A DNA stretch of 64,000 nucleotides from a virus. Taxonomy: Duplodnaviria; Caudoviricetes. Where the stretch lies: the IMG/VR virus record IMGVR_UViG_3300046167_000801; one strand, written 5' to 3'. The notes below the pieces were generated by a model. It searched no databases, was not told the DNA's origin, and saw only the letters and a list, made by a program, of their open reading frames with translations. Shown here one piece after another: positions 1,827 through 33,571 of the stretch. Position 1 is the stretch's first letter. Every line of letters starts with the position of its first letter. The translations under genes and the position numbers were made by a program.

Positions 1827-2861
1827 ATGTCAGATCTAAGACCATTGGGTAGTGAAAAATTACCTGTAGACGAAAAATTAAAAAGAATTATGGAGATTGC
1901 CAATTATGGTATATCTCAAAAATCCAACATTACTGAAGGAAATTCTACTAAGTCAGTTCAATTCATTAAAGAATCATCTAACGGTGTGTACGGTATAGTA
2001 AAAGAAAAAGAAGGTTATTTCGTAAAGAAAGGTCTTACAGAAGGTTCTTTAGATTATATCGGAGGTATTTTTATGAAAAATAAAAATAAATTCAAATCAT
2101 ACTCTGAGGCATTAAAAAGATTAGAACTCATTAGTGGACAGGAATCATTAAACGAAGCAAAAAAATACGTATTAAAGACTAAGGACTCAGAACCTGTGGC
2201 CGATGCTCCTGTAGAGGACGTACCCGCAGAACCTGTAGCTGACGCTCCTGTAGATGATGCACCTATCGATGATTTACCACCGGCAGATTCAGGTATAGAA
2301 GACGAAATACCGTCTGATGAACCTGCGATGGAACCTGAAGGTGAGGAAGAAGGTAAGAGATCGGATTATATGGCCGACATTCAAAAATTCTCTGGTAAAT
2401 TAGGACAAGCATTGAGAGATGTAAAAGAAAAAATGGAAAGTGATGATATTAAGTATGTTATCAACATGGTTCTTTCAGCTGTCAATATTGATTCGTTAGA
2501 TGAGGAAGATAGAGAAGAAATTGCAGAAAGATTTGAACCTAAAGATGATTTCTCAGACGAAGAAGGAATGGATGATATTCCATCTGAAGACTCAGACATG
2601 GAAGGTGAATTACCATCTGACGAAGAATTAGATGAGATAATGGATAAATTAGAAAGTTTTGTTGATGCACCTATTGAGGAAACAAGTGATTTACCCGAAC
2701 CAGAAGAAATAGAAGAAAAAAGAATCGAAGACATTGCAGATTTAAGCGTGAGACACGAAGAAGTATCTGAAATGGAAGAAGACGTAGAACTTGATTTAGA
2801 TGAACTCAAAAAGGAAATTAACAAAAATGTTGATGATACTTTGAGTAAATATTTTAAGTAA
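1827..2861 (+). CDS. Acidic hypothetical protein, probably head-associated
   Basis: 344-aa ORF with D/E/P-rich linkers and ITE/LNE sites, preceded by TATTTATA at 1786-1793. Confidence 0.7.
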   Translation: MSDLRPLGSEKLPVDEKLKRIMEIANYGISQKSNITEGNSTKSVQFIKESSNGVYGIVKEKEGYFVKKGLTEGSLDYIGGIFMKNKNKFKSYSEALKRLELISGQESLNEAKKYVLKTKDSEPVADAPVEDVPAEPVADAPVDDAPIDDLPPADSGIEDEIPSDEPAMEPEGEEEGKRSDYMADIQKFSGKLGQALRDVKEKMESDDIKYVINMVLSAVNIDSLDEEDREEIAERFEPKDDFSDEEGMDDIPSEDSDMEGELPSDEELDEIMDKLESFVDAPIEETSDLPEPEEIEEKRIEDIADLSVRHEEVSEMEEDVELDLDELKKEINKNVDDTLSKYFK

Positions 2862-2862
2862 T

Positions 2863-3267
2863 ATGAGACTTATCTATATCAATGAAATTGGAGCTGACTA
2901 TAAAGGTCAGAAACAATATGAATTTATTTTTAGTGATCAACTCGAATTTGATATAGAGGAGTGGTACCATATACCCGCATCTACGTGTACAGAAACACTA
3001 TCTCCCCATTTAGAATATATTAGTTTAGTTGGTGTACTTAAAAATAGTGACATTGATTTAGATCTAATACAAAAATCAGATTACTTTGGTGTAATTGATG
3101 CCGTAGACGGTGTGATTTCATTGGGGTGGGAAAAGTTTGATTTCGAAAGTGAGTTTGAAAGACTTACTTTTTCATTTGGTGAAAAAATAGATAAGGTTAG
3201 TGAAAAAATAGAATCAAGAGGTTTTAAACTAATAAAAGAAGAATTAAATTATAATACGGGAATATGA
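2863..3267 (+). CDS. Hypothetical protein
   Basis: 134-aa ORF tightly packed between its neighbours. Confidence 0.7.
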   Translation: MRLIYINEIGADYKGQKQYEFIFSDQLEFDIEEWYHIPASTCTETLSPHLEYISLVGVLKNSDIDLDLIQKSDYFGVIDAVDGVISLGWEKFDFESEFERLTFSFGEKIDKVSEKIESRGFKLIKEELNYNTGI

Positions 3268-3833
3268 AAAGAAACGTAATAGTATCAAAACTTTTAAATG
3301 AGGGGTTCACTGAGAAGTTCCTTTCTAAATTGACGGATAAACAAATTACTGAATTATCTAATAGAATTTTATCTGAAGAAACTTTGAATATACCTAAGGA
3401 CGATACACAAGGTGTGGAAGACGCAAAAAGAAAAGGTGAAAAATTTGTTACCTATGAAGAAGAAACTGAAGAAGACGAAGAATTAGGGGAAGAAGAAACA
3501 AGTATCGAAGAATGGGTAGAAGGTGTGGTTAAAGAAAACTATCATACAGAGGTTACAACTAAAAAGGAGATATATGAGATGATTGGTGCACTTTCAGACT
3601 CACCTGATGCATTAGCTGCGGCTCAAAATTATTTTAGTGTGGACGAACAGTCACCTGAACCATCTAAACCAGATACTGATGCACCTGTAAGAGAAAAACC
3701 AAGTACGAGACCAGGTAAACCAAAAAGAGAAAATCCTTTTGAACCAAAACATAAACCAAAACCTAAAGCTAAGTTACCAAAACAACTAAGTTTTGATTCT
3801 ATAGGTCTTAATTTAAAAATGGCGGCAGAATGA
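3264..3833 (+). CDS. Hypothetical protein with Pro/Lys-rich C-terminus
   Basis: 189-aa ORF with 4-nt overlaps to both neighbours. Confidence 0.7.
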   Translation: MKRNVIVSKLLNEGFTEKFLSKLTDKQITELSNRILSEETLNIPKDDTQGVEDAKRKGEKFVTYEEETEEDEELGEEETSIEEWVEGVVKENYHTEVTTKKEIYEMIGALSDSPDALAAAQNYFSVDEQSPEPSKPDTDAPVREKPSTRPGKPKRENPFEPKHKPKPKAKLPKQLSFDSIGLNLKMAAE

Positions 3834-5146
3834 TTAGTAAAAAAGAATTATTAGAAACCATAAAAGGTTTAAAGGAAATGCCCGTAGATTACGGAGATAA
3901 CCCTGAAAGAATAACACCCGATGTTGAAGACAAATTGGCATCGAGAGAAACACCCTTTAAAGATAATCCTTCATTTCCTGAAGAATCACCAGAAGGTGTT
4001 GAGTCTAATTTTGAAGAATTATTGGCATCTAAGAGATTTAAAGATGTTGTTGCAAAAGTAAAAAGATATACGGGTGAGGAAGGTAATATAACAGACCAAA
4101 ACGTACTATCTCAGTTAATGAGTACTATGCAACGAACATTGATGAGTGTTTTACGATTTGAACAAGACAATAAAGAATATTTAGAGAACTTAGCGGTAGA
4201 ACTTGTTAAGAAAGAAATGTCACTACCTGAAGACACACTACAATTCGATGCGAAATTAGTTGGTATAGGTGGTATAGATTCAGAAGGTTTTTCTAAGGAA
4301 TCAGAAGATCCAAGTGAAGAAGAGGTAGAACAACAATTTGGTGTAAACCCTGAAGAGGCTGAAGATGGTTTAGAAGACTTTATGGATGCGATGGAAAAGT
4401 TCGATCAGGAAACCGCGAAAAGAAGATTTATTAACGCATTAATACAGGGAGCATCTAAAAAAGGACATTATATGTTTGAGTTGGTTGCAAATGAATTAAC
4501 TGAAAGAGATCCAAACATCGTAAATCAATACGGTGTATTAATGTCAGTTAACGATTTACTTTATTGGGTATTACCTGACGGAATGATGGAAATGGGAATG
4601 GGTGATGGAAACCAAGCCGGTAAGGAGGAAATTGATACGGAAACTGATCCACCTACAATTATTGCAAGAGCGGTATTTTTTCCCGCATTGATACACGAAG
4701 TAATTAAAGGAGTAATGGAAATTATGGGTACACAAGGTTTACCCGACGATCCAAGATCTGCAGAAATGGTGATGAATAAAACTGACACTTTACCTTCAGA
4801 AATTTGGGATTTAAGATTAGGACCGATTATTTGGGAAAAATTTAGATCTTCATATCCTGATAGGTTAAATCAAGAAGATATGACACACATCCAAAATTAT
4901 CTTTTCTCAAGATTTTCTCAATTAGACGCTGAAGAATTTTTCAGAGTGGCTAAAGAAATAATGAGAGGATCTGCAATGGGTAAAAGTATTTTAAGTAATA
5001 TGGTGGACCAAATCATACAAGATTTACAAAATGAAGATTACGAAGAGGACCAATATAATAGAGAAAAAGAAGATGACGATGACGATGGTCTCGGAGGATT
5101 CTTAGGGTCATTAGGAATTACATTTTCTCCTGAAGACGACAATTAA
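3830..5146 (+). CDS. Hypothetical protein upstream of the terminase
   Basis: 438-aa ORF followed by a terminator; no family recognised. Confidence 0.75.
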   Translation: MISKKELLETIKGLKEMPVDYGDNPERITPDVEDKLASRETPFKDNPSFPEESPEGVESNFEELLASKRFKDVVAKVKRYTGEEGNITDQNVLSQLMSTMQRTLMSVLRFEQDNKEYLENLAVELVKKEMSLPEDTLQFDAKLVGIGGIDSEGFSKESEDPSEEEVEQQFGVNPEEAEDGLEDFMDAMEKFDQETAKRRFINALIQGASKKGHYMFELVANELTERDPNIVNQYGVLMSVNDLLYWVLPDGMMEMGMGDGNQAGKEEIDTETDPPTIIARAVFFPALIHEVIKGVMEIMGTQGLPDDPRSAEMVMNKTDTLPSEIWDLRLGPIIWEKFRSSYPDRLNQEDMTHIQNYLFSRFSQLDAEEFFRVAKEIMRGSAMGKSILSNMVDQIIQDLQNEDYEEDQYNREKEDDDDDGLGGFLGSLGITFSPEDDN

Positions 5147-5163
5147 ATAACACGGATTATAAG

Positions 5164-5189
5164 AAAGTGGTCAATAGACCACTTTTTTT
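5164..5189 (+). terminator. Rho-independent terminator
   Basis: AAAGTGGTC-aata-GACCACTTT followed by a T run. Confidence 0.8.
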
Positions 5190-5190
5190 G

Positions 5191-5198
5191 TATTTATA
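5191..5198 (+). promoter_or_regulatory. Putative late promoter TATTTATA, 4 nt before the terminase ATG
   Basis: Motif recurs upstream of about 20 structural genes and here sits directly after a terminator. Confidence 0.65.
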
Positions 5199-5202
5199 GG
5201 AT

Positions 5203-6978
5203 ATGGATAAACATAAACTCATACAGTTAAAGGAATACGCGAAGATCATGAAAGATACTCCGTATGCACTTAAAACATATTTAACCACGTATGATAATAC
5301 ACAAAAGAAATATGTACCATTAGAGTTATTTCCAGACCAAGTTGAATTAATTAAAGACTACGACAACTATAATGAAAATATAACTCGTAAGTATAGACAG
5401 GCGGGTGTATCTACTGTAACCGCAGCTTGGTTATCTAAACGTATACAAACCGCAAAACCCGAAAACCCAGAAAGAATACTTATTATCGCTAACAAGAGAG
5501 ATACTGCGATAGAAATGGCTAATAAAGTTAGAGGTTTTTTAGATCAATGGCCAGAATGGATTAACGTTGGGTTTTCACCTGATAAAAATTCTGAAAGTAG
5601 GTATCGTATGAATAACGGATGTGAGGTTAAGGCGGTTGCGACATCTGCCGATGCACTTCGTGGTTATACACCAACAGTATTGGTTTTTGATGAGGCTGCA
5701 TATATTGAAGCGGGAGAAGATTTTTGGGCGGCTTGTATGGCCTCCTTATCTACGGGTGGTAAAGTAATACTTATATCCACACCTAACGGACATGACCCAA
5801 TTTATTATGGGGTATATGATCAGGCGTTACGAGGTATGAATGATTTTAAAATAACCGATTTAAGATGGTTTAAAGATCCAAGATATGCCAGTGACTTAAA
5901 ATGGATTAAAGTAGACGATATCATACATTATATGTTGAATAGAGAACAATATAATGATGATGAAATAATTTTAGAACAGGGTTGGGAAGGATATGAAGAA
6001 TTACTCGAGAAAGGATACAAACCGTACTCTCATTGGTTTGAGAATATGGCAAAAAAATTCAAGTATGACAAAAGAAAAATCGCACAAGAATTGGAGTGCG
6101 ACTTCCTCGGTTCTGGTGATGGTGTTATCCCAAATACAATACAAGACAGGATAAGAAAAACCATGATAAAGGATCCAATGGAAAAATACATGCAGGGTAC
6201 TTTTTGGTTATGGAAGGAACCTGTTGAGGGTCATAGATATATAATGGGTGTTGACGTATCTCGTGGAGATAGTGCTGACTCGTCATCAATATGTGTGATT
6301 GATTTTGATGAAAACGAACAGGTTGCGGAATATGTGGGTAAGATTCCACCAGATGATTTGGCATCGATAGTTTATAAATGGGGTACACTTTATAAGGCGT
6401 TTGTCGCTACAGACATAACGGGGGGTATGGGTATTGCAACATCACGTAAACTACAGGAAATGGGTTATAAGGACCAATATATTGACGGGGTGAACTCAAA
6501 TAATATTTGGCAATACAATAAGAAGGCACAGGAAAAAATACCTGGTATTAATTTTAATAACAAACGAACACAAATAGTTGCGTCTTTTGAAGAAAAACTT
6601 AGACATGGATTTATAGTTAAGTCATCTCGATTATTAAATGAATTAAACACGTTTGTTTATATAAACGGTAGACCTAACCACATGAAGGGGGCACATGATG
6701 ATGCAATCATGGCGATGGCCATTGCAATGTACGTGGGTGATATATGTTTCACTCAACTAAAGAGAAACGATAGCGCAAACAAAGCAATGTTAGACTCATG
6801 GTTACTCTCAGAAAGGACTTATGAAACAAAAAAATCTTTCTATTCTCATGGAACCGCGTTCGATGCTGTCGGATCTATGACTACTGACGGACAACCATAT
6901 AACCCATCTAATCAAAATATCAGTAAGGACCAATACATGGAACATAGTTGGTTATTTAGTAAAAGAGGTTATAGATAA
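5203..6978 (+). CDS. terL: Terminase large subunit (T4 gp17-like)
   Basis: KYRQAGVST (Walker A region), LVFDEAA (Walker B), ISTPNG, and nuclease motifs IMGVDVSRG and HDDAIMA. Confidence 0.93.
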   Translation: MDKHKLIQLKEYAKIMKDTPYALKTYLTTYDNTQKKYVPLELFPDQVELIKDYDNYNENITRKYRQAGVSTVTAAWLSKRIQTAKPENPERILIIANKRDTAIEMANKVRGFLDQWPEWINVGFSPDKNSESRYRMNNGCEVKAVATSADALRGYTPTVLVFDEAAYIEAGEDFWAACMASLSTGGKVILISTPNGHDPIYYGVYDQALRGMNDFKITDLRWFKDPRYASDLKWIKVDDIIHYMLNREQYNDDEIILEQGWEGYEELLEKGYKPYSHWFENMAKKFKYDKRKIAQELECDFLGSGDGVIPNTIQDRIRKTMIKDPMEKYMQGTFWLWKEPVEGHRYIMGVDVSRGDSADSSSICVIDFDENEQVAEYVGKIPPDDLASIVYKWGTLYKAFVATDITGGMGIATSRKLQEMGYKDQYIDGVNSNNIWQYNKKAQEKIPGINFNNKRTQIVASFEEKLRHGFIVKSSRLLNELNTFVYINGRPNHMKGAHDDAIMAMAIAMYVGDICFTQLKRNDSANKAMLDSWLLSERTYETKKSFYSHGTAFDAVGSMTTDGQPYNPSNQNISKDQYMEHSWLFSKRGYR

Positions 6979-7027
6979 TTAAACAGGTTTAAAAAGTGAA
7001 AAAAATTTCGTATATTATAAAGACTAA

Positions 7028-7035
7028 TATTTATT
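7028..7035 (+). promoter_or_regulatory. Putative late promoter TATTTATT, 3 nt before the portal ATG
   Basis: Same recurring motif. Confidence 0.6.
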
Positions 7036-7038
7036 AAT

Positions 7039-8850
7039 ATGGCAAAACAAAATATGACAGTGTATCAAAGGTTAACAAAGGTTTTCGGTTTTACCGCAGA
7101 CCAACCTTCGAAACCCCCACAATATAAATTTGATAGAGACCAACTGTTAAAAACAGATAGTAGAGAAGATTATGAAAAGGAACTTCTCCAACAACAACAA
7201 TCTCAATATATTGCAGATAAGTGGTCTAAATTAGATCAATCATTATATAATCAATCGGTTTATTATGAACCAAATAGATTAGCAGCGTATTATGATTATG
7301 AGTCTATGGAATTTACACCGGAAATTTCTGCGGCTTTAGATATATATTCTGAAGAATCAACAACCCTTTCAGAAAAGGGGGATATACTTACAATTTATTC
7401 AGAGTCAAAAAGGGTAAAAAACATACTCACAGATCTTTTTGAGAATATATTAGACGTAAACACTAACCTACAAATGTGGTGTAGAGGTTTAGGTAAGTAC
7501 GGTGATAACTTCGTTTATTTAAAAATAGATCCTGAAAGAGGTGTAGTTGGGTGTCAACAATTACCTAACATAGAAATAGAACGACATGAAGGTGCAGCGT
7601 CCAACGTACATAAAGCGGAACCATCGTCAAATGTTACAATGCCAAGTAGAGAACTGAGATTCGCGTGGAAAAATAAAGACATGGAGTTCCAAGCATGGGA
7701 AGTCGCACACTTTAGATTATTAGGGGACGATAGAAAATTACCTTATGGTACGTCAATGTTAGATAAGGTAAGACGTATATGGAAACAATTACTACTTGCA
7801 GAAGATGCAATGTTAATATACAGAACATCAAGAGCACCCGAAAGAAGAGTATTTAAAGTATTCGTGGGTAACATGGATGATAAAGACATTGAATCTTATG
7901 TACAACGTGTGGCAAACAAATTCAAAAGAGATCAGGTTGTTGACCCACAAAATGGACAAGTAGACATGAGGTACAACCAAATGGCTGTAGACCAAGATTA
8001 CTTTATTCCTGTTAGAGATCCGGGTCAAACTTCACCAATTGAAACATTACCAGGAGCACAGAACTTAGGTGAGATTGCAGATATTGAGTACATTCAAAAG
8101 AAGATGTTAGCCGCTCTTAGAATACCCAAAGCATTCTTAGGATTTGAGGAAATCGTTGGTGACGGTAAGACATTGGCACTAATGGACATACGTTTTGCAA
8201 GAACTATTAATAGAATTCAAAAATCCTTAATCCAAGAACTAAACAAAATTGCATTAGTTCATCTTTACTTATTAGGTTTAGAGGACGAGTTGGATAATTT
8301 TACATTATCCCTTACTAATCCATCCGCACAATCTGATTTATTAAAAGTAGAACAATGGAAAGAAAAGATAACACTTTATAAAGATGCAACATCAGATCAA
8401 TCACAGATAGGTATACAACCTGTTTCACATACATGGGCTAAGAAAAACATCTTAGGTATGAGTGATAACGATGTGGTTCTTGATTTACAACAACAAAGAC
8501 TCGAACGTGCACTTGGTGGTGAATTAGGGGCTACACCTAACATTATAAAAAGAACGGGCGTGTTTGATGAAGTTGATAAGAAGTATGGTATACCTGAGGA
8601 GGAGAGACAATCTATGGACACTTCCTCACCTGTTGAAGGAGATGAAATGGGAGGTGCACCACCCCCACCAGCAGGAGACATAGGAGGTGAAGAACCTCTT
8701 AGTGAAGGGACAGGAAAATCAAATAAATCTAAAATATTAAGTATGTTAGGTGATGAATCACAAGATTTTGATGATCTTTTTGATGTTAATAAGGCACAAC
8801 AGAATATTTATGAAGTAGAGAATAAACTCAAAGACATATTAAACGACTAA
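7039..8850 (+). CDS. gp20: Portal protein (T4 gp20-like)
   Basis: EDAMLIYRTSRAPERRVFKVFVGNM and the QDYFIPVR...IETLPG stretch match T4-type portals; follows terL. Confidence 0.93.
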   Translation: MAKQNMTVYQRLTKVFGFTADQPSKPPQYKFDRDQLLKTDSREDYEKELLQQQQSQYIADKWSKLDQSLYNQSVYYEPNRLAAYYDYESMEFTPEISAALDIYSEESTTLSEKGDILTIYSESKRVKNILTDLFENILDVNTNLQMWCRGLGKYGDNFVYLKIDPERGVVGCQQLPNIEIERHEGAASNVHKAEPSSNVTMPSRELRFAWKNKDMEFQAWEVAHFRLLGDDRKLPYGTSMLDKVRRIWKQLLLAEDAMLIYRTSRAPERRVFKVFVGNMDDKDIESYVQRVANKFKRDQVVDPQNGQVDMRYNQMAVDQDYFIPVRDPGQTSPIETLPGAQNLGEIADIEYIQKKMLAALRIPKAFLGFEEIVGDGKTLALMDIRFARTINRIQKSLIQELNKIALVHLYLLGLEDELDNFTLSLTNPSAQSDLLKVEQWKEKITLYKDATSDQSQIGIQPVSHTWAKKNILGMSDNDVVLDLQQQRLERALGGELGATPNIIKRTGVFDEVDKKYGIPEEERQSMDTSSPVEGDEMGGAPPPPAGDIGGEEPLSEGTGKSNKSKILSMLGDESQDFDDLFDVNKAQQNIYEVENKLKDILND

Positions 8851-8852
8851 TT

Positions 8853-9587
8853 ATGGCAACATTCGGGAACATTAAAAATAAGATTTTAGTTAAATTGACT
8901 GAATCATATGGTAAAAAGGATTTTAAAAATAACCTTAACACATATTTTAAACCTATAACTAAAAATGATACACTCAAAGAGATGTATTCATTATATGAGG
9001 AATTGGAAGGTAAAACTTTTGAAGATAAAGAAACCGCAACACTATATGTTGAGGAACTATCAAGAATTTTAAAGGAAAAGACTTCTGAGATACAAACAGA
9101 TTTAAATCAATTAAATGAATCCTTATCTAATGTAGAATCTAAAAGTAATGATTTATACGAAAGTATTGATTCTTTATCTACACCAGATAATTTAAGTAAT
9201 ATCTCCGATAAGGTTATTGCTAAAAAATATTTAGTTGAACATTTAACAAAAAATAAAACTAACGAATCACTTACTGTAGATGAGGGGGTTAACGAATCAT
9301 TACTAAATTCTGTCTTAGTAAATAACTTTAATGTTAGTTTTGATAAGACATTAAATGAAGAAGAAAAAGGTAGATTAAAAAACATACTATCCCTTAACCA
9401 AGAAGATTTAGAAACTAAATTTGAAGAGATAACAGAAAGTATTAAAGGAAAATTAGATTCAATAGTAGAATCGGACGCAGAGTTTAAAACGAAATCTATT
9501 GAGGTTAAGACCGAGATTAATGAAATGACTCAAAGTAAGTATAACTTATACAGATTAGAAGAGTTATTAAATAACTTGTCAGAATAA
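8853..9587 (+). CDS. Hypothetical helical protein, possibly prohead core
   Basis: 244-aa ORF with repeated LTE/LNE/VNE sites directly after the portal. Confidence 0.65.
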   Translation: MATFGNIKNKILVKLTESYGKKDFKNNLNTYFKPITKNDTLKEMYSLYEELEGKTFEDKETATLYVEELSRILKEKTSEIQTDLNQLNESLSNVESKSNDLYESIDSLSTPDNLSNISDKVIAKKYLVEHLTKNKTNESLTVDEGVNESLLNSVLVNNFNVSFDKTLNEEEKGRLKNILSLNQEDLETKFEEITESIKGKLDSIVESDAEFKTKSIEVKTEINEMTQSKYNLYRLEELLNNLSE

Positions 9588-9618
9588 TATTCCTTTACGG
9601 CAGCTACCTTAGAGGTGT

Positions 9619-9664
9619 AAATCCCTGTTTTTGATACATCAAAGTCTCAAATGGGGATTTTTTT
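9619..9664. terminator. Hairpin between convergent genes, possibly a bidirectional terminator
   Basis: AAATCCC...GGGATTT outer stem with inner TTTGA-taca-TCAAA, followed by a T run. Confidence 0.45.
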
Positions 9665-9854
9665 ATTGCTCGTTTTCGTCTTTCAGTTTCTGTATATACA
9701 CCGCCTTTTGTTTTTGTAGTCTTTTTTTGACGGATGGTTTAGTGAATTGTTTATTCTCTCTGAGTTTATTGATTTGTTTTACGTTTCTTACTTTTCTACG
9801 CAATTTCTTTATCGCTTTCTCAATACCACCTTTGTCTACTTTTATTATTAGCAT
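9663..9854 (-). CDS. rpsU: 30S ribosomal protein bS21 (phage-encoded)
   Basis: MLIIKVDKGGIEKAIKKLRRK...LRENKQFTKPSVKKRLQKQKAVYIQ fits the bS21 pattern (F.KPS..R) and resembles Flavobacteriia bS21. Confidence 0.88.
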   Translation of the reverse strand: MLIIKVDKGGIEKAIKKLRRKVRNVKQINKLRENKQFTKPSVKKRLQKQKAVYIQKLKDENEQ

Positions 9855-9871
9855 ATATAATTTTGTATATT

Positions 9872-9879
9872 AATAAATA
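9872..9879 (-). promoter_or_regulatory. Putative late promoter TATTTATT of rpsU
   Basis: AATAAATA on the + strand, 17 nt upstream of the rpsU ATG. Confidence 0.55.
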
Positions 9880-9958
9880 TACTAGAAAAATTTGTTTTTC
9901 CAAAGAAAATTACTTATATTTTATTAAACACCATTAAAAGATTATAATAATGAATTAA

Positions 9959-10384
9959 ATGAAACTAGGACGTTACATCCCATTAGGGGATCACAAAAAC
10001 GTTAAGATTGGATATGGGACGATAAACCATAAAAACTTAAAGACAATTTACCTCTCTTTAAACTCTTGGTTAGAACCCAAAGAAATATGTGAGGATTACG
10101 ATGCAATATTAAGATCGTCGAAAAACAAAATAAAAAGATTAGTACACAATTTAGGTCACGGACTTTTTAGATCAGAATCGATTGTTGATTTAGATGTAAG
10201 AACTAAAGGTATAAAAAAAGAAAAGAGATCTTTTATGAATTTAGAAGTTACTCTATACACGTTAAAACAAGTAAACGTAAAGGATAAAGACTTGAAAACA
10301 GACATGTATGGTTTACTATGTGAGATCATAGATACTTGTTTAGATAACGAATTATTATACAATTTCCACAAAAAGAAAAAATAA
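9959..10384 (+). CDS. Hypothetical protein
   Basis: 141-aa ORF divergent from rpsU. Confidence 0.7.
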   Translation: MKLGRYIPLGDHKNVKIGYGTINHKNLKTIYLSLNSWLEPKEICEDYDAILRSSKNKIKRLVHNLGHGLFRSESIVDLDVRTKGIKKEKRSFMNLEVTLYTLKQVNVKDKDLKTDMYGLLCEIIDTCLDNELLYNFHKKKK

Positions 10385-10425
10385 GTCCGTTTTCCATGTA
10401 TTTATAGTAATAAAACTACAGATAC

Positions 10426-11109
10426 ATGAAAGTATTAGGACCAAAAGAAACAGGTAAAGGAATATTAATAGAATATGACGCGGGATTTATTTCTCCCAAA
10501 GAGAATAAAAGTGTTATATCAGAAATGAAGGGAATTGATTTCTCTGAAGATATTATCCTTTACGCTGTTCTACAGAAATATGATACTCCGAATAAGAACG
10601 GAAGAATCTATCCAGAGAGATTACTCAAAAGAGAGATGGAAAAGTATCAAGAAATAATTGATAAGGGTTCAGCGTTAAATGAACTAAATCATCCATCATC
10701 TTCACTTATAGATTTAGATAGAGTTTCACATACGATCACCGAGACTTGGTGGGACGGTAAAATTCTTATGGGAAAAATTAAATTACTTCTTTCACCTGGT
10801 TGGAAAAAATCGGGTATTGTAAGTACTAAAGGTGATCAAGCCGCAATGTTATTAATGAACGGTGTTACCTTAGGTATATCATCAAGGGGAGTTGGGTCTC
10901 TTAAATCGGTTAAAGGTCAGAATATAGTACAGGAGGACTTCGAATTGGTTTGTTTTGATTTAGTATCATCCCCATCAACACCTGGCGCTTATGTATTCCA
11001 AGATCCAGGAGATAGAGAAAAGTACGAAGAATCCATTGAAGAACAACCTATTGTAGACGAGAGAATGAGTAAACTTATGGGTAATCTGAATAGTTTCTTA
11101 TCTAAATAA
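10426..11109 (+). CDS. gp21: Prohead protease (T4 gp21-like)
   Basis: NKNGRIYP, ELNHP, GISSRGVGSL and FDLVSSPSTPGA motifs. Confidence 0.93.
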   Translation: MKVLGPKETGKGILIEYDAGFISPKENKSVISEMKGIDFSEDIILYAVLQKYDTPNKNGRIYPERLLKREMEKYQEIIDKGSALNELNHPSSSLIDLDRVSHTITETWWDGKILMGKIKLLLSPGWKKSGIVSTKGDQAAMLLMNGVTLGISSRGVGSLKSVKGQNIVQEDFELVCFDLVSSPSTPGAYVFQDPGDREKYEESIEEQPIVDERMSKLMGNLNSFLSK

Positions 11110-11190
11110 TAAACTTTTCTTTGATTACTATATCACAAAAGTAATTTTTTCTTAATTAACAAGTATTTATTATTAAACTATAATATACAA

Positions 11191-12507
11191 ATGAGTAAAA
11201 AATCCATTTTAGAACAAGCATTGCTTCAAGTACAAGATCTTGAAGAGGCAGTAAAGGCAAACGCAAAAGGTATACTTGCTTCAACTATGAAGGAAGAACT
11301 AAACGATGTCCTAAACGAATCTATGGAACAAGAGGAAGTTGAAGGTAACGAAACTCCTATAACAGAAGACGAACAAGATATGCCAATCTCGGAACAAGGA
11401 ATTGAAGACGAGGAAGGAAATGATGACGAAACTTCGATAAACGACGAGCCAGCAGACGACGTTGATCCAGACATGGAAGATGAAGAGGGTGAAGACGAAT
11501 CAGACGACGAATTATCAATAGATGATGAGGACGAAGATTTTTCATTACCAATGGATTCTGAAGAAGAAGGAGAAGACGAAGTACTTGACATGACCGACGC
11601 ATCTGACGATGAAGTCCTAAAGGTATTCAAATCAATGAAACCTGAAGACGGAATTGTTGTGAAACGTGACGGTGATAATGTTGAACTCGAAGACGGAGAC
11701 GACGAATACATCATCAAATTAGATGACGAAGAAAGTGAAGTCGAAGAAGAATACAACGAAGAGGTATCTGAAGAAGAAGTTGAGGAATCAGAAGTATCTG
11801 AGACCGATATGGAAGAAGAGGTATCTGAAGAAGAAGTATCTGAAACTGATGACACTGTCTACGAAATTGAATTAGAAGACGTATCCGAAGAAGAAGTCTC
11901 TGAAGAAGAAGAAGAAGTTTCCGAAGAGGAGGTATCTGAAGAAGAAATTGACGAATCAGAAGTATCTGAGGAGGAAATGGAAGAAGAAGTCTCTGAAGAG
12001 GAAGAATCTCATGAAGAGGAAGTCGACGAAGCTGCAAGAACAAAATCCAATGTACATGGTGACAAGGGAGGTGCTAACAGAGCCGGTATTAAGTCTAAGA
12101 CTAAATATAAGGCAGGTGCAATCAACGAAGAGGTTGAAACTTTAAAGAAACAAAACGGTGAATATAAAAAGGCGTTAGTTTTATTTAAAGAGAAACTAAA
12201 CGAGGTTGCTGTGTTTAACGCTAACTTGGCATACGCTACAAGATTGTTCACAGAACATTCGACAACTCGTCAAGAGAAATTAAATATTTTGAAAAGATTT
12301 GACTCTGTCACTTCTTTAACAGAATCTAAATCCACTTATAAAGTAATAGAAGGTGAATTAGGTTCAAAACAAAATGTTACTGAATCGGTTGCAAAATCAA
12401 TCGTTTCAACTCCGACATCATCCTCATCTCAAGAAGTACTTTCAGAAACAAAAGCATACGAAAGTCCACAGTTTAAGAGAATGAAAGATTTAATGTCAAA
12501 ATTATAA
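11191..12507 (+). CDS. Prohead core/scaffolding protein (gp22-like position)
   Basis: Very acidic protein with a coiled-coil C-terminus, located between protease and major capsid genes. Confidence 0.8.
   Translation: MSKKSILEQALLQVQDLEEAVKANAKGILASTMKEELNDVLNESMEQEEVEGNETPITEDEQDMPISEQGIEDEEGNDDETSINDEPADDVDPDMEDEEGEDESDDELSIDDEDEDFSLPMDSEEEGEDEVLDMTDASDDEVLKVFKSMKPEDGIVVKRDGDNVELEDGDDEYIIKLDDEESEVEEEYNEEVSEEEVEESEVSETDMEEEVSEEEVSETDDTVYEIELEDVSEEEVSEEEEEVSEEEVSEEEIDESEVSEEEMEEEVSEEEESHEEEVDEAARTKSNVHGDKGGANRAGIKSKTKYKAGAINEEVETLKKQNGEYKKALVLFKEKLNEVAVFNANLAYATRLFTEHSTTRQEKLNILKRFDSVTSLTESKSTYKVIEGELGSKQNVTESVAKSIVSTPTSSSSQEVLSETKAYESPQFKRMKDLMSKL
11761..12006 (+). repeat. Coding tandem repeats, ten VSE(E/T) units
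   Basis: Degenerate gaagag/gaagaa-gt(a/c/t)tc(t/c)ga units; ten VSE tripeptides counted in the translation. Confidence 0.85.
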
Positions 12508-12542
12508 TAAAATAAATAAAAAAACTAAAACTCAAATTTAAA

Positions 12543-14255
12543 ATGGGAGCATTATTAGAATCAGGTATGGTTGGTAACATCGGGTTAAAACACCTAAGAG
12601 TTATCAAAGAAGATACCATCAAAAAATGGGATGACCTAGGTTTCTTAGAGGGACTTAATGGACATCAAAAAGATAACATCGCTCAGTTGTATGAAAACCA
12701 AGCGTCTTATCTAATTAACGAAGCTGCTGTGTCTGACTCATCAGGTTCATTCGAAACAGTTGTTTTTCCAATCATTAGAAGAGTATTCTCTAAATTATTG
12801 GCAAACGATATCGTTTCTGTACAAGCTATGAACTTACCAATTGGTAAATTGTTCTACTTTGTACCTAAAATTGCAGAAAGAGCTGGCGGTACTGGTCATA
12901 CAGCACCTTACGCATCTCCAGGTCAAGACGCAAACGGAGACTTCACAGGGACTAACCTTTATGATAGATTTTATGAAGAAGGTGATGACGCTGCAGAAGG
13001 TATCTACGATTACTCAAAAGGTAAATTTTCTGTACAAGATTTAGCAGGATCGGCAGTTGTAGTATTTAACGAAGGTATTGCTACAGATGCTGGTACTATG
13101 GCAGCAGGAGAACAATCAAGTGTAATTGTTAAGTTTGGAGGATTCTCTAAATTAGGATCAGGTAAACTTGCGGGACCTAACGGTAACGAAATGGATACTG
13201 AAGAATTTTTGGCATCATTAGATATCAAAAACTCGGCTATTAAGGCTGGTAACTTACCTTTTAACGTTGTAACTCAGAAATACGGAAGTGGTATTGTTGA
13301 GTACGGTGCTAAAGGAACAGGTGCTGCAGGTGGTCAATATCCAGATATCGTTGATAAAGATGGTGTAATCTACTTACAGATTGATCTTGAAGATTATACA
13401 CCGGCATCAGGTTATACAAAATTTGACGCAGCAGGAACTGAAGCGGCATCAGGTTTTACAGGAACTTACAGACAATACGCTACATTAGAATTCGAAGATG
13501 AAATCGGAGAAGTATCTTTCGATTTAGATTCTGTAACAGTTTCTGTTACTGAAAGAAAACTAAGAGCTAGCTGGTCTCCTGAATTGGCTCAGGATGTATC
13601 TGCTTTCCATAACATCGACGCTGAGGCTGAGTTAACAGCATTGTTATCTGAGCAAATCGCGGCTGAGGTTGATAGAGAGATCTTAAGAGACTTAAGAAAA
13701 GGTGCAGCTTGGAACCTTAAATGGGACTACAATGAGTGGAAATATGGTGGAAACGGAAACGCAACACTACAAGGATACACTCAAAAGGATTGGAACCAAA
13801 CGTTAATTACTAAAATTAACCAATTATCGGCTCAAATCCATAAAACTACACTTAGAGGTGGTGCTAACTGGATCGTTGTTTCTTCTGAAGTTTCAGCTGT
13901 ATTCGATGACTTAGAGTACTTCCACGTATCTAACGCAGGTGCAGAACAAGATCAGTACAATATGGGTATTGAGAAAGTTGGTACTTTAGCAGGAAGATAC
14001 CAAGTGTATAGAGATCCTTACTTCCCAGCGGGTAAAGTATTGGTTGGACATAAAGGAAAGTCGTTGTTAGACGCAGGGTACATTTACGCACCTTACGTAC
14101 CGTTACAACTTACACCTACAATGTACAATCCATTCAACTTTACACCGATCAAGGGTATCATGACGAGATACGCTAAGAAAATGGTTAATAACCGTTACTT
14201 CGGTGTGATCAACGTTGCAGGATTACAAACATTCAACTTAGATACTTTAAGATAA
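12543..14255 (+). CDS. gp23: Major capsid protein (T4 gp23-like)
   Basis: IVSVQAMNLPIGKLFY, TERKLRASWSPELAQD, EIDRE-like EVDREI, YAPYVPL and TRYA motifs. Likely maturation site LINE/A at residue 60. Confidence 0.96.
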   Translation: MGALLESGMVGNIGLKHLRVIKEDTIKKWDDLGFLEGLNGHQKDNIAQLYENQASYLINEAAVSDSSGSFETVVFPIIRRVFSKLLANDIVSVQAMNLPIGKLFYFVPKIAERAGGTGHTAPYASPGQDANGDFTGTNLYDRFYEEGDDAAEGIYDYSKGKFSVQDLAGSAVVVFNEGIATDAGTMAAGEQSSVIVKFGGFSKLGSGKLAGPNGNEMDTEEFLASLDIKNSAIKAGNLPFNVVTQKYGSGIVEYGAKGTGAAGGQYPDIVDKDGVIYLQIDLEDYTPASGYTKFDAAGTEAASGFTGTYRQYATLEFEDEIGEVSFDLDSVTVSVTERKLRASWSPELAQDVSAFHNIDAEAELTALLSEQIAAEVDREILRDLRKGAAWNLKWDYNEWKYGGNGNATLQGYTQKDWNQTLITKINQLSAQIHKTTLRGGANWIVVSSEVSAVFDDLEYFHVSNAGAEQDQYNMGIEKVGTLAGRYQVYRDPYFPAGKVLVGHKGKSLLDAGYIYAPYVPLQLTPTMYNPFNFTPIKGIMTRYAKKMVNNRYFGVINVAGLQTFNLDTLR

Positions 14256-14280
14256 TATATCTTTAAGTTCTATTAATATT

Positions 14281-14309
14281 AAAGGGGATCGATTCGGTCC
14301 CCTTTTTTT
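14281..14309 (+). terminator. Rho-independent terminator after the capsid gene
   Basis: AAAGGGGATC-gattc-GGTCCCCTTT followed by a T run. Confidence 0.8.
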
Positions 14310-14338
14310 ATTGCAATATTTTCTGTATATTATAACTT

Positions 14339-14779
14339 ATGATATGGAAAGATTACTTTGTTAGTATTGCAGAACAAGTTAAAGAAAAGTCTAAAGATAT
14401 TAAGACTAAAATAGGTGCCGTTATTGTTGGTAAAGATAATGAGATATTAAGTACGGGATATAACTCATTCCCAAGAGGACTAAACGATAATGTGGTTCAG
14501 AGACAAGAACGACCTGAAAAATACTTTTGGTTTGAACATGCAGAAAGAAACGCCATATATAATGCAGCGAGAATAGGTGTATCATTAAAACAATCCACAG
14601 TATATCTAACTTCAGGACTACCATGTATGGACTGTGCAAGGGGTTTGGTACAATCGGGAGTAATAAAGATTGTATGTAAAAAACATTGTACTACTAAAAA
14701 TTCAGGTAAGTGGAAAGAAAGTCAAGAACGATCTCTTATTTTGTTGAATGAGTGTGGGGTAGAAGTCGAGTTTTATTAA
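14339..14779 (+). CDS. dCMP deaminase (Zn-dependent, ComEB/T4 cd family)
   Basis: HAERNAI and PCMDCA zinc motifs, plus TGYNSFPRG. Confidence 0.92.
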   Translation: MIWKDYFVSIAEQVKEKSKDIKTKIGAVIVGKDNEILSTGYNSFPRGLNDNVVQRQERPEKYFWFEHAERNAIYNAARIGVSLKQSTVYLTSGLPCMDCARGLVQSGVIKIVCKKHCTTKNSGKWKESQERSLILLNECGVEVEFY

Positions 14780-15047
14780 GTTTTCTTATTTTAACCTTTA
14801 AATCACCCGTCCCCTTAATAACTCTATGGAATTCACCTTCGGGGATATTAATAACTAACCCTTTAGTTATTTTAATTGGTAATTTATTATCCATTTGAAA
14901 TGACCAATCACTCTCGTGTAAAAAAGTAACCTCACGATCTTCGTTATCGAAGTGCCATTTTAATTCAGATTCATTTATATCTTTTGAAAACACTCGTGTA
15001 CTGTGGTTGTCGGATAATATTTCTCTATATGGTAAAGTATCCCCCAT
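14736..15047 (-). CDS. Small cupin-fold protein
   Basis: KWHFDNEDR and IPEGEFHRVIKG resemble cupin motifs 1 and 2. Confidence 0.6.
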   Translation of the reverse strand: MGDTLPYREILSDNHSTRVFSKDINESELKWHFDNEDREVTFLHESDWSFQMDNKLPIKITKGLVINIPEGEFHRVIKGTGDLKVKIRKLNKTRLLPHTHSTK

Positions 15048-15547: not shown

Positions 15548-15548
15548 A

Positions 15549-16532: not shown

Positions 16533-16541
16533 TTTTCTATA

Positions 16542-17282: not shown

Positions 17283-17300
17283 ATTATTTTATTTAAAATT

Positions 17301-17744: not shown

Positions 17745-17758
17745 ATCTAATAAGTATT

Positions 17759-19132: not shown

Positions 19133-19162
19133 CTTGTAATTAGTTTCTTATATAAATATCAC

Positions 19163-24641: not shown

Positions 24642-25705
24642 GCTGTTTCTTCTTGTTTTAATTTATCCAACGCTTCTGACAATACGTTTAATCTTCCTTC
24701 TTTAAGTGAATTAAAAATAGATGTCACATTGTTATCGATTATATCACTATCGTATGGTATTAGTGTTTCTCTCATTTTTTCTTTTACTTCGTCAGTAATT
24801 GTTACTCCTTCCAACCACGCTAAAACGTAAGTACCTAGTAGTTCTACAATTTTATTTAAATCATAAGTCCATATACCATTCTCGGACAACCACTCAGGTT
24901 CTGTTGTAGGTATTTTACCAATAACTGGTACTTCACACTTCATTGACTCCAAAGGGAACGTCCCAAAAGTAGAATCATCGTCCATCCAAACAGAACAAAT
25001 ACATTCTTTTAATTGGGTAGAAAATTCTTCATAGGTTAATTGTACCATATCTTTAAATGTAACCCATCTTAGTTGAGGGTACTTTAAATAGAATTCTGAT
25101 ATTACTTTTCTATGTTGACCTCGGTCTCTCGCACTAATGGCAATAAAAGGTTTGGTAGGGTTTTCTGAAGGAGAGAATCCATCACCAATCTTTGGTGGAT
25201 TTACGTGAATCAAATTCTCAGGGAAAATACTTTTTATATATTCCTTAGATTTTTGTGTTGTTGTAATTACTTTATCAAAACCATAATCACTCCATCTACT
25301 ACCAACAGGTAGGGTTTCAAATATATATTCGGTTTGTTGTACTAACATAACCTTAGTACATTTAACTGATGCCAGTTGTTCAAGTACGTTAGAGTAGTAT
25401 TCAGGTACCACTAAAATATCTTCAATACCCATTTGAACTTGATCCTCTTTTATACTCACAATTGGTATATCTTTAAATCTGTCACCTAACCACGAATTAA
25501 CACCTACGTAGTTTTTATCTTCAACTAAAATGTATGCATCTAACCCACTTTCTCTTAAAGTGTGTACGGTGTCATATATGTATTTAACTGACGCCCTTGC
25601 ATTTGTTTTAGTATCATATGTAAGAAAGTATAACTTATGTTTGTTAGATTTTAACCTATCATACGCACTTTCTATTTTTTCCAAGTTTTCTATTTTTTCA
25701 CTCAT
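24638..25705 (-). CDS. Glycosyltransferase, GT-B fold
   Basis: DILVVPEY and DDDSTFGTFPLESMKCEVPVIG (FG..P.EAM..G.PVI donor-binding motif). Confidence 0.7.
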   Translation of the reverse strand: MSEKIENLEKIESAYDRLKSNKHKLYFLTYDTKTNARASVKYIYDTVHTLRESGLDAYILVEDKNYVGVNSWLGDRFKDIPIVSIKEDQVQMGIEDILVVPEYYSNVLEQLASVKCTKVMLVQQTEYIFETLPVGSRWSDYGFDKVITTTQKSKEYIKSIFPENLIHVNPPKIGDGFSPSENPTKPFIAISARDRGQHRKVISEFYLKYPQLRWVTFKDMVQLTYEEFSTQLKECICSVWMDDDSTFGTFPLESMKCEVPVIGKIPTTEPEWLSENGIWTYDLNKIVELLGTYVLAWLEGVTITDEVKEKMRETLIPYDSDIIDNNVTSIFNSLKEGRLNVLSEALDKLKQEETA

Positions 25706-25991
25706 ATTCTTCTTTAACTAAAATACCATATTTTATTAGTGTGTTAAACGCAAATTTAAATGGTAATGATAATTCTGAATTAAGTAATCCTAACCCGTTA
25801 TCGTCCACCACATTCTCAGTTAAAATAGTATCTATACATTGTTTAACCGCATCGTATTTAAACACGTTTATTGTTTGTTCCACTTGTAGTGGTTCCCCCT
25901 TATCATTCTTGATCGGTTCGACTTCTAATTCGCACGTCTCAGTAATTTTGCTAATGTTGAGATAATAATATTCTCCGAAGATTTCAACCAT
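25698..25991 (-). CDS. Hypothetical protein
   Basis: 97-aa ORF overlapping both neighbours. Confidence 0.55.
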   Translation of the reverse strand: MVEIFGEYYYLNISKITETCELEVEPIKNDKGEPLQVEQTINVFKYDAVKQCIDTILTENVVDDNGLGLLNSELSLPFKFAFNTLIKYGILVKEEYE

Positions 25992-30001: not shown

Positions 30002-30053
30002 ATATTATTGTTATATATCAAAATATAAGAAAAAAATATGATGAAATCAATCC

Positions 30054-30659: not shown

Positions 30660-30695
30660 TGTGTTATAATTTATTAAAATATAGACTTTTATTTT

Positions 30696-31403
30696 TTATT
30701 TATAAAGTAATCTTTTAATTCTCTTTATGTTCTCATTCAAACCATCGTAATCATTTGTTTCATCCTCTTCCTCCTCATCTGAATCATCAATTACGGGTGG
30801 TTCTATACTTGGTTTATTTTCAGGTTCGGGACTTGGTAATTCATCACTTTGTGGTTCTATAGAAGTTGGTTCTACTTGTTGAGGTTCTACGGATGGTTCT
30901 ACTTGTTGAGGTTGTGGTTCAGTTTGTTGAGGTTGTGGTTGTGGTTCAGTTTGTTGGGGTTCTGCGGATGGTTCAGTATCCTTAGTTACTTGAGGTATTT
31001 CTGACCAATCGGATGTCACGTATGTTGTTGACATTGATTTATCATCACCTTCCTTATATCCCGGTCTTTTTGTGTCAAAAGTTTCTTGATCAAATATCTC
31101 TACTTGACTTAACCTAGAAACCATAAATGTCCTCCAATTATTTTTACTAAATCCCGTCTTTGATCTTGACGGGGGTTGCACCCAACCTCTAATGATCATG
31201 TTTCCTTTTTTAGATAGTCCTAATGCGACTACCTCCACTTTTACTCTACGTCCGGCCTGAACTTGATCTCTTGGTCCATTATAAAAAAAACTTATTGGGT
31301 TTCTTTTTTTAATTGCATTAGCCAACGCTTTAGGTTTTGACGCTAATTTTGGTTCAGATTGTTCACCTATTAAAAACTTATATATATCTTTAAATAATTT
31401 CAT
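30696..31403 (-). CDS. WYL-domain protein without HTH, with Q/P/E-rich tail
   Basis: AIKKRNPISFFY...R.KVEVVALG...IRGW...WRTFMVSRLSQVEI...TF matches the WYL domain layout. Confidence 0.7.
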   Translation of the reverse strand: MKLFKDIYKFLIGEQSEPKLASKPKALANAIKKRNPISFFYNGPRDQVQAGRRVKVEVVALGLSKKGNMIIRGWVQPPSRSKTGFSKNNWRTFMVSRLSQVEIFDQETFDTKRPGYKEGDDKSMSTTYVTSDWSEIPQVTKDTEPSAEPQQTEPQPQPQQTEPQPQQVEPSVEPQQVEPTSIEPQSDELPSPEPENKPSIEPPVIDDSDEEEEDETNDYDGLNENIKRIKRLLYK

Positions 31404-32347
31404 TAAAAATCGGGATAACCACTATTACCACTATATTGGTTCCTTGCAATACTTTGGTTTCTTTCGTTTATATCTTTTGATGTACCTACACTATTATTGT
31501 TTTCTGCTCTACCTTTTTCATCGCCATCAGAAATTGCATTAGGGTGTACTAAACTATATGAATTGTTTTCATCATATATGTTTCTTGCTTGATTATCTAA
31601 ACGATTATTTATATCGGTTTGTGAACCAACCTGATTATTATTTTCACCTTTACCTAAGTCATCTCCGTCCGACAATGCATTAGGATGATTCACACCATAC
31701 CCATTTAAATCATTACTGTATTTGTTTTGTGCAATTATTGCCGCTCTTGTATTGATGTCAGTTATAGATCCAACCATTTGGTTATTCTCACCTTTACCTA
31801 ATTCATCTCCATCAGATATTGCGTTAGGGTGGTTTACACCATAACCATTACTTGAGTTGTATGAGTTTCTAGATACATTATCCACTCTTGTTTGATTATC
31901 TGTTAATCCACCAACTTTTCCGTCATTCTCTCCTTTACCTAACTCATCCCCATCAGAAATTGCGTTGGGGTGATTAATACCGTAACCGTTATCAGAGTTG
32001 TATGAGTTTCTTTTTATGTGTTCTTGTCTTTGATTTTGGTCGGTTATTGTACCTACTTCACCATTTCTCTCACCTCTACCAAACTCATCTCCATCAGATA
32101 ATGCGTTTGTGTTTTCAATACCATAACCAAAGTTAGGACCATATTTATTTCTACCTAAGGAATCAATTCTTGTGTTAATATCTGTACTTGAACCGACTTT
32201 ACCATTATTTTCTCCTTTACCTTTATCGTCCCCATCAGAAATTGCGTTGGAATGGTTAGAATCATAACTCTTTGTTTTTTGGTAATCATTTCTTGACATT
32301 GATTCGTCTAAAAATTGTTTTGATATTTTTTCTATTTGACTTGCCAT
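31403..32347 (-). CDS. Protein made of six 47-aa tandem repeats
   Basis: Six NA[IL]SDGD[DE]xG[KR][GA]E repeats with a period of 47-48 aa (about 141 bp). Confidence 0.85.
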   Translation of the reverse strand: MASQIEKISKQFLDESMSRNDYQKTKSYDSNHSNAISDGDDKGKGENNGKVGSSTDINTRIDSLGRNKYGPNFGYGIENTNALSDGDEFGRGERNGEVGTITDQNQRQEHIKRNSYNSDNGYGINHPNAISDGDELGKGENDGKVGGLTDNQTRVDNVSRNSYNSSNGYGVNHPNAISDGDELGKGENNQMVGSITDINTRAAIIAQNKYSNDLNGYGVNHPNALSDGDDLGKGENNNQVGSQTDINNRLDNQARNIYDENNSYSLVHPNAISDGDEKGRAENNNSVGTSKDINERNQSIARNQYSGNSGYPDF

Positions 32348-32838
32348 TATAATAATTTTTTAATTCTCTCAACATCCTCAAAAATACCTAACGATGAAAT
32401 GGGACTAACTGAAGTTTTATCTGAGTTAGATTTCATCATATTTCTTGGGATTGAGTAATTTGTTTTCTTATCGTGTTTCGATAGGTAAGGGTTTTTTCTT
32501 ATGTCATCCAATTGTGCAATATTGTCTGCCCTTTTTTTAGATTCTTTATTGTTTTTAATAAGGTTTCTTTCTCCGTTTAAAAACTTTTTACACCATTCTA
32601 ACATTTTATCTCCCCCCGCCAGATGAAATTGGTTGTGGTCACTCTCTTTATCCATGTTCTCTAAATCATGAATAATTCTTTTTGCTTGACCATAAGTAAT
32701 ATTCTTAGTTCTAAGTAAATTCTTAGCCCGTTGTGTACCGTCTATCGTCTTATCACTTAATGAGTTAAAAAACTTAAGTATATAATCACAAATATCTTCA
32801 GGTACTTTAAAAACCCTATCTTTAAGATCTCTATTCAT
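32347..32838 (-). CDS. Hypothetical protein
   Basis: 163-aa ORF ending FEDVERIKKLL. Confidence 0.7.
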   Translation of the reverse strand: MNRDLKDRVFKVPEDICDYILKFFNSLSDKTIDGTQRAKNLLRTKNITYGQAKRIIHDLENMDKESDHNQFHLAGGDKMLEWCKKFLNGERNLIKNNKESKKRADNIAQLDDIRKNPYLSKHDKKTNYSIPRNMMKSNSDKTSVSPISSLGIFEDVERIKKLL

Positions 32839-33571
32839 TATCGTCTAGTAATTTAGTTATATCTGATACGTTTAAATTATTTTTCTTTAATGATCTTTTT
32901 AAGGAATCTAATTGTCTTTTTAAGATTGGGTTAATTTCTTTTTCACTATCATTAACAATCTCTTTGTGATCACTTTTCTTAGAAAGAACTGTCTCAACGT
33001 AATCTTTCATGAATTTTTTTGGGTTCTCCACAAGTCTGACTTTATCCTCGGGTAATTTTTCGTCATATCCCATTGATTCTAATCTTTTCATTGCATCATC
33101 ATGAGTTAATCCTAATTCACCCGTAAAATGTTTATATGCCTTTTTAAAGTTTTCGTCGTCACCTAACGTATCATCATAACCTAACGATTTAGTTAAATCA
33201 CTTTCAGCCCAATATCTAAGTGAGGTATGTGTTCCGTGAACACCATGTGTTCCCTGTGAACCACCAACCGCCTTAGCCGTTTTATCTGTTGTTTTCTTTG
33301 ATGTTATTCCTTTAGCGTGAAAGTCGGATGCTTTACCACCTCTTTTGATATTTCCTTTTGCATCTACTATCTCATCAACATCACCCTCTTTTTCAGCAAC
33401 TTCAGGAATTTTTTCAAAGTCAGTGTCCTTAGACATTTCGTCCGCCATTTTCTTCCACTTAGCTCTTTCTTTTTTAGTTAGACTCTCATCATTGGCCTTT
33501 GCATAGAAAAAACCTTGTTGTTTTTTAGAGGTAAATTTCTCTTCTATTACCTGTTTTATAAAATTATTCAT
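32831..33571 (-). CDS. Hypothetical protein
   Basis: Likely start at ATG 33571 (MNNFIKQVIEE), below the TATTTATA motif at 33587-33594. Confidence 0.65.
   Translation of the reverse strand: MNNFIKQVIEEKFTSKKQQGFFYAKANDESLTKKERAKWKKMADEMSKDTDFEKIPEVAEKEGDVDEIVDAKGNIKRGGKASDFHAKGITSKKTTDKTAKAVGGSQGTHGVHGTHTSLRYWAESDLTKSLGYDDTLGDDENFKKAYKHFTGELGLTHDDAMKRLESMGYDEKLPEDKVRLVENPKKFMKDYVETVLSKKSDHKEIVNDSEKEINPILKRQLDSLKRSLKKNNLNVSDITKLLDDNE

Follow-up and report, generated by a model that had tools for sequence, protein, structure and literature searches.

Why should unrelated proteins of one phage begin or end in nearly the same short helix as its head scaffold? The question is raised by a stretch of 64,000 nucleotides (nt) from a tailed phage (Duplodnaviria; Caudoviricetes; IMG/VR record IMGVR_UViG_3300046167_000801), the whole of which is called the window here. 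In this window the prohead protease and the scaffold end in related peptides, and similar peptides stand at one terminus of three further proteins, an acidic protein of 344 amino acids (aa), a 163-aa protein and a WYL-like 235-aa protein (the tagged proteins). To our knowledge, the selection of proteins by large phage heads is known only for the few internal proteins of T4. We find that the terminal likeness of the five peptides is more than chance. The motif is probably a prohead-docking helix that copies the scaffold tail and is clipped off, a variant of the T4 capsid targeting sequence that may stand at either terminus.

The coordinates of the five peptides were checked, and each lies at the end to which an initial annotation of the window had assigned it. 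Two further C-terminal helices, those of the portal and of a 244-aa protein, are possible weaker relatives of the motif.

12439..12504, plus strand: scaffold tail, residues 417-438 of 438; a conserved L-x-E, then F-K-R-M-K-D-L-M three residues from the end
11053..11106, plus strand: C-terminal helix of the protease, residues 210-227 of 227; R-M-S-K-L-M
32350..32385, minus strand: C-terminal tag of the 163-aa protein (gene 32347-32838), residues 152-163 of 163; [LIV]-F-E-x-Phi-x-[RK]-I-K-x-L-L, where the protein ends
30699..30740, minus strand: C-terminal tag of the WYL-like 235-aa protein (gene 30696-31403), residues 222-235; L-N-E-x-I-x-R-I-K-x-L-L and two more residues
1866..1901, plus strand: N-terminal tag of the acidic 344-aa protein (gene 1827-2861), residues 14-25
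8806..8847, plus strand: C-terminal helix of the portal; I-Y-E-x-E-N-K-L-K-D-I-L
9540..9584, plus strand: C-terminal helix of the 244-aa protein, whose gene lies between portal and protease; Y-R-L-x-E-L

With the scaffold sequence F-K-R-M-K-D-L-M as the reference copy, the pattern R-[IM]-x-x-L-[LM] was found six times in the window (63 open reading frames (ORFs), about 20,000 residues). Four of the six copies, those of the protease, the scaffold, the WYL-like protein and the 163-aa protein, lie 10 residues or fewer from the C-terminus, a placement with a binomial probability of about 1e-5 for a pattern that was chosen post hoc. Because of that choice, three less biased tests were run. A BLOSUM comparison of all C-terminal 14-mers of the window with random interior segments gave no significant excess, and the case therefore rests on the relatives and not on the window alone. 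For the second test, a leave-out matrix was derived from nothing but the tails of protease and scaffold in relatives. Applied to the window, it placed the WYL-like tail at rank 9 and the 163-aa tail at rank 14 of 20,061 positions, and in the relative G002 (286,785 bp, 86% estimated completeness) terminal peptides made up five of the first seven non-self matches.

The third test compared profiles of eleven protein families by scoring every pair of 10-column profile windows (34,804-96,954 pairs per comparison). The best match between scaffold and WYL-like protein was tail-to-tail (rank 1 of 96,954), as was that between the 163-aa and WYL-like proteins (rank 1 of 34,804), while the tail-to-tail match ranked second of 93,522 for protease and scaffold and second for scaffold and 163-aa protein. 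Residues 16-26 of the 344-aa protein were the rank-1 match of both the 163-aa and the WYL-like tails. Thus six family pairs gave rank 1-2 on their termini, whereas control families ranked from 26 to 19,000, mostly in the hundreds to thousands; tail pairs with the capsid, 141-aa, 255-aa or 201-aa family lay between 57 and 19,000. The profile matches were confined to the termini, and neither Pfam nor PHROGs gave the tagged proteins a family, or one common to them. The motif is therefore a terminal peptide on unrelated bodies. We also considered the portal and 244-aa tails as members. Their helices are kept in 54 and 58 relatives, respectively, but they resemble the motif weakly (profile ranks of only 28-233 for the portal tail, and rank 9 against the protease tail for that of the 244-aa protein), and we list them as possible relatives of the motif, not as members. 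An origin of the tags as a recombination scar was rejected, since the tag DNA shows no repeat beyond what common residues and codon bias account for.

Each of the five peptides is conserved. The scaffold tail is near-invariant in 80 relatives whose capsids are 65-85% identical, with its L-x-E about 17 residues upstream of the C-terminus in all 80, and the acidic middle of the protein varies. In the protease tail the L-M-x-x-L core is kept in 62 relatives. All 96 homologues of the 163-aa protein (42-98% identity) end in [LIV]-F-E-x-Phi-x-[RK]-[IF]-K-x-[LI]-[LMI]. Of 120 homologues of the WYL-like protein, 119 end in L-[NQ]-E-x-[IL]-x-R-I-K-x-L-L-Y and one is a truncated record; the tag is also present in G002 and the other long relatives G003-G006. 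In both the 163-aa and the WYL-like families the linkers vary while the tags stay conserved. The N-terminal K-L-K-R-I-L-E-L of the 344-aa protein is kept in five relatives (six loci, two of which are the same G002 gene), with a conserved [IV]-K-E after the tag, near residue 48.

An AlphaFold2 model of the 163-aa protein (mean predicted local distance difference test score 79) consists of a folded domain (residues 1-111), a disordered linker (112-150) and a lone helix (152-162) that coincides with the tag. In the model, this domain-linker-helix layout has the anatomy of a docking peptide on a tether. When the model was compared with the PDB by Foldseek, no match had an E value below 1. The ESM Atlas yielded only a weak lead to WYL, which 25% of one neighbouring cluster carries.

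The motif also marks termini beyond the window. A strict form of the pattern occurs only three times in the 87,910 residues of G002, and two of the three copies are the protease and scaffold tails; of 16 matches to a relaxed form, 13 stand at a terminus, against about 15% expected. In a 20-kilobase (kb) island of G002, five other proteins open with the same 12-residue motif, here L-x-E-x-Phi-x-R-I-[KR]-x-M-M, and each copy is followed within a few residues by [LIM]-x-E. The protease, the scaffold and the 163-aa and WYL-like proteins have the motif at the C-terminus, and it is N-terminal only in the 344-aa protein and the G002 leaders. Other proteins of the island carry a second leader, ending in I-T-E-S, and the island leaders precede HD, poly(A) polymerase/CCA-type and pterin dehydratase domains. 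The island itself (about 4600-20600 of the G002 stretch 120001-140000) holds about 20 genes with three interchangeable N-terminal leaders (the motif R-I-K-x-M-M-G-L, the opening M-K-I-I-I-T-E-S-Q, and F-T-I-T-E-S-E), some of them before domains of no known type. In the window, the N-terminus encoded at 15549-16532 was considered as a second leader of the G002 type and set aside, as it belongs to that protein's own DUF5872 domain.

The cultured Flavobacterium phage Immuto (MW353176) has a scaffold with the end R-W-Q-K-L-A-G-I-I, and two of its hypothetical proteins, encoded at 25470-25865 and 111631-112095, open with R-M-Q-x-L-A-G-I-I followed by T-E-S. The Q and A are common to scaffold tail and tags in Immuto, while the lineage of the window has K and M or L in both. 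The tags therefore co-vary with the scaffold tail between lineages, which points to a co-evolving protein receptor. A similar scaffold tail is present in the Microcystis phage Mel-JY01.

If such a helix docks a protein in the prohead, how might the protein be released? In T4, proteins are directed to the core by short propeptides at a terminus, which gp21 removes by cutting after the Glu of L/I-x-E; gp21 itself and Alt are also processed at the C-terminus (PMC9026906). The initial annotation had given these facts of gp21 cleavage and internal-protein targeting correctly. It had further held that many ORFs of the window place [LIV]-x-E directly before a new domain, and this did not withstand comparison with control motifs. 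The window has 274 [LI]-x-E sites where 228 are expected, and the excess is likewise 20% for [LI]-x-K, [LI]-x-Q and [LI]-x-R. When set against the G002 orthologues, the sites are 45% conserved, compared with 37-49% for the control motifs. We therefore discarded [LI]-x-E as a general marker of substrates. Individual sites are well kept. One of them ends the predicted capsid propeptide:

12543..12722, plus strand: predicted propeptide of the capsid protein, residues 1-60, with L-I-N-E as its last residues and Ala next

Across 78 sequences neither the propeptide nor its L-I-N-E/A site changes; variation is seen in the 4-6 residues that follow. The L-x-E within or next to the tags is likewise conserved, so that at the level of sequence an [LI]-x-E-type site stands between tag and body ([LIV]-F-E in 96 of 96 homologues of the 163-aa protein, L-[NQ]-E in 119 of 120 of the WYL-like protein). 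G002 also keeps junction sites in the proteins encoded at 15549-16532 and 17301-17744. [LI]-x-E occurs once in the 163-aa protein and twice in the WYL-like protein, with one copy at the tag in either protein, and the bodies of both would therefore be expected to survive a gp21-type protease. The 244-aa protein has 13 such sites where 6.5 are expected.

The window spans structural genes, in collinear order, of a large myophage whose head is of the T4 type. The head and tail genes, and the operon that encodes two of the tagged proteins, are as follows.

5203-6978: terminase
7039-8850: portal (Pfam Portal_T4, E 1.6e-78)
9663-9854, minus strand: bS21 gene (Pfam Ribosomal_S21, E 7e-10), between portal and protease
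10426..11109, plus strand: prohead protease of the T4 gp21 type, 227 aa (Pfam Peptidase_S77, E 3.1e-24)
11191..12507, plus strand: head scaffold gene, 438 aa with an acidic low-complexity middle, directly upstream of the capsid gene
12543-14255: capsid protein (Pfam Gp23, E 7.7e-76)
52320-55133: sheath
30696..33571, minus strand: operon of closely spaced genes for the 246-aa, 163-aa, 314-aa repeat and WYL-like proteins, with overlapping stops and starts

Pfam thus finds a gp20-type portal, a gp21-type protease and a gp23-type capsid protein. The scaffold was called by position and composition, and its 80 homologues adjoin Gp23-type capsid genes. Phages of freshwater Bacteroidetes that encode bS21 have genomes of 293-331 kb with about 32% G+C, and bS21 lies antisense within their block of large terminase subunit, portal, protease and major capsid protein genes (PMC9723584). 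The G+C content of the window is 0.31-0.38. Because bS21 has the same placement here, a hallmark of these phages, and because G002, collinear with about 70 kb of the window, encodes bS21 as well, we assign the phage, with its T4-type head, to this group and put its genome at roughly 300 kb.

A motif of late type is common to the tagged and the head genes. The genes for the 344-aa protein, terminase, portal, protease, scaffold, sheath and tube all have TATTTAT(A) ahead of their start codons, at a distance of 11-42 nt. Ahead of the operon, TATTTATA lies at 33594-33587, 23 nt before the true ATG at 33571. The listed TTG start of the first gene (246 aa, 32831-33598, minus strand) at 33598 is probably wrong, as the homologues start at the ATG. 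The motif is frequent in the leader island of G002 too, and is likely, judged by its placement, to be a late promoter. If so, as its distribution suggests, the tagged genes would be made together with the head. The same motif is found in sense orientation upstream of about 18 structural-gene starts (for example 5191, 7028, 10399, 11164, 33594 on the minus strand, 52278 and 55362), and it is the reverse complement of the T4 late box. The 314-aa protein of the operon (31403-32347, minus strand), whose gene separates the two tagged ones, is made of about six repeats in tandem, each of some 45 aa (H-P-N-A-I-S-D-G-D-x-x-G-K-G-E...), and has a conserved Y-P-D-F end.

We propose that the scaffold tail docks during head assembly, either on the Gp23-type capsid protein, at its inner face or propeptide, or on other scaffold tails. 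The protease and the 163-aa, WYL-like and 344-aa proteins, which carry a helix of scaffold type on a flexible tether, would co-assemble into the prohead core. After assembly the protease would cut behind the Glu of the conserved [LI]-x-E between helix and body, and the bodies would be freed inside the head, where they might be retained and later ejected with the DNA. The claim of the initial annotation that the helix is a loading address fits a conserved terminal helix on three unrelated proteins and on a protease and scaffold that enter the prohead. Its choice of the scaffold as the binding partner is too narrow, because the scaffold itself ends in the motif and is only one of the possible receptors. 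The inner face or propeptide of the capsid protein is at least as likely a receptor as the scaffold: either the capsid protein would bind the motif, in the way that other scaffolds have tails which bind the coat, or the tails would bundle together.

Several observations weigh against a capsid-targeting tag. To the null result of the window-only BLOSUM test can be added that, among the tags, the protease tail resembles only the scaffold tail in the family profiles, and that its upstream Arg is lost in a more distant clade. A scan of Mel-JY01 with the strict pattern gave no copy besides the scaffold tail. [LI]-x-E is too common to be diagnostic, and our literature search found no virion proteome for this phage group. 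Furthermore, the tagged proteins are conserved core genes, unlike the variable internal proteins of T4, and are collinear in all five long relatives. This last point would suit a role in which the tag does target the prohead, and the 163-aa, WYL-like and 344-aa proteins are accessory parts of core or scaffold, like gp67 and gp68 of T4, that are degraded and expelled at maturation. Such a role would also suit the 344-aa protein, which is acidic and of low complexity like the scaffold and opens a late operon adjoining the terminase, and the 244-aa protein of the head module, with its dense [LI]-x-E sites. The tagged proteins could be degraded core components of this kind, but we consider it unlikely: the scarcity of [LI]-x-E sites in the 163-aa and WYL-like proteins, one each being at the tag, argues that their bodies would survive the protease, and the 163-aa protein is predicted to have a compact folded domain.

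The helices might instead serve another purpose altogether, as amphipathic membrane-targeting helices like those of MinD and FtsA, or as coiled coils that pair the products of one operon. They are short, basic and amphipathic and lie at extreme termini, the 163-aa and WYL-like genes do share an operon, and T4-type proheads assemble on the inner membrane (PMC9546572). Against this stand a scaffold that ends in the same motif, a protease that ends in a related one, and the motif at the N-termini of unlinked G002 genes; nor would a lipid target require the motif to co-vary with the scaffold tail between lineages. We regard this explanation as improbable. A resemblance by chance, in which each helix would be kept for reasons unrelated to the others in a Lys-, Ile-, Leu- and Glu-rich proteome, draws on the lack of excess in the window-only test and on the post hoc definition of the pattern. 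It is already disfavoured, and to us very improbable, given the terminal ranks of the six family pairs against those of the controls, the rarity of the strict pattern in G002 outside the protease and scaffold tails, and the terminal position of most relaxed matches there.

A variant of the T4 capsid targeting sequence is, by analogy, most likely what the tag represents. As with the targeting sequence of internal proteins IPI-III and of Alt, it belongs to a T4-type head module, stands as a short terminal peptide on unrelated proteins, and has [LI]-x-E between peptide and body. It differs in that it copies the C-terminal tail of the scaffold in 12 residues with a fixed R-I-K core, occurs on conserved core genes, and is C-terminal (in two tagged proteins) as well as N-terminal. 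Comparison with the N-termini of the T4 internal proteins (the IPII/IPIII propeptide) revealed no sequence likeness to the motif. The IPII/IPIII propeptide and the N-terminus of the T4 scaffold gp22 both end in [FL]-I-A-E-A after Gln or Glu, and from this correspondence the T4 targeting peptide may likewise copy a scaffold end.

Other systems share parts of this arrangement. In herpesviruses (UL26/UL26.5), lambda (C/Nu3) and P2, the protease and the scaffold end in the same peptide by way of nested in-frame genes, which brings both into the procapsid. The protease and scaffold of the phage studied here also end alike; unlike in those systems, they are separate ORFs with an 81-nt gap between them and a common motif of 6-8 residues, and further proteins carry the motif. 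Encapsulin cargo-loading peptides are short terminal peptides on a flexible linker that bring unrelated cargo inside a shell of the HK97 fold. They share with the tag the tethered terminal peptide and differ from it in consensus; encapsulins have neither scaffold nor protease, and the peptide is not removed. In the giant phages phiKZ and SPN3US, many head and ejection proteins are cut after Glu by gp21-like proteases, at the motif S/A-x-E (PMC9026906). The phage of the window resembles them in its large size and in a three-residue motif with predicted cutting after Glu, and differs from them in that motif; a scaffold-tail tag is not described for phiKZ or SPN3US, and our literature search found no published description of one.

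Tentatively, we extend the proposal to T4-type heads in general, which could choose their contents by mimicry of the scaffold end: a protein with a copy of the scaffold helix at either terminus and an [LI]-x-E joint would be loaded and released, and the tag would co-evolve with the scaffold in each lineage. T4 may follow the same rule. In the jumbo phages of this group the rule would serve a conserved set, among them the WYL-like protein, which may bind nucleic acids; in relatives it would serve an island of enzymes. If the tag is indeed readable from sequence, derives from the scaffold tail and acts at either end, virion cargo would be predictable in uncultured T4-type phages. Such a tag would also offer a testable answer to the long-standing question of which partner the T4 targeting peptide binds, and foreign proteins could be loaded into phage capsids by a second handle, at the C-terminus.

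Three further features of the window were recorded. An Hsp20/alpha-crystallin small heat-shock protein (265-636, plus strand; Pfam E 2e-20) is encoded upstream of the late head operon. Two adjacent ORFs on the plus strand, 43477-44553 and 44657-46390 (358 and 577 aa), match the same 965-aa protein of G002; in the window the gene is either split or has an interruption of about 100 nt. Three genes on the plus strand, at 33604-36393, 37488-39971 and 40078-41157, encode proteins that resemble tail fibres and have very long linkers rich in Thr and Pro.

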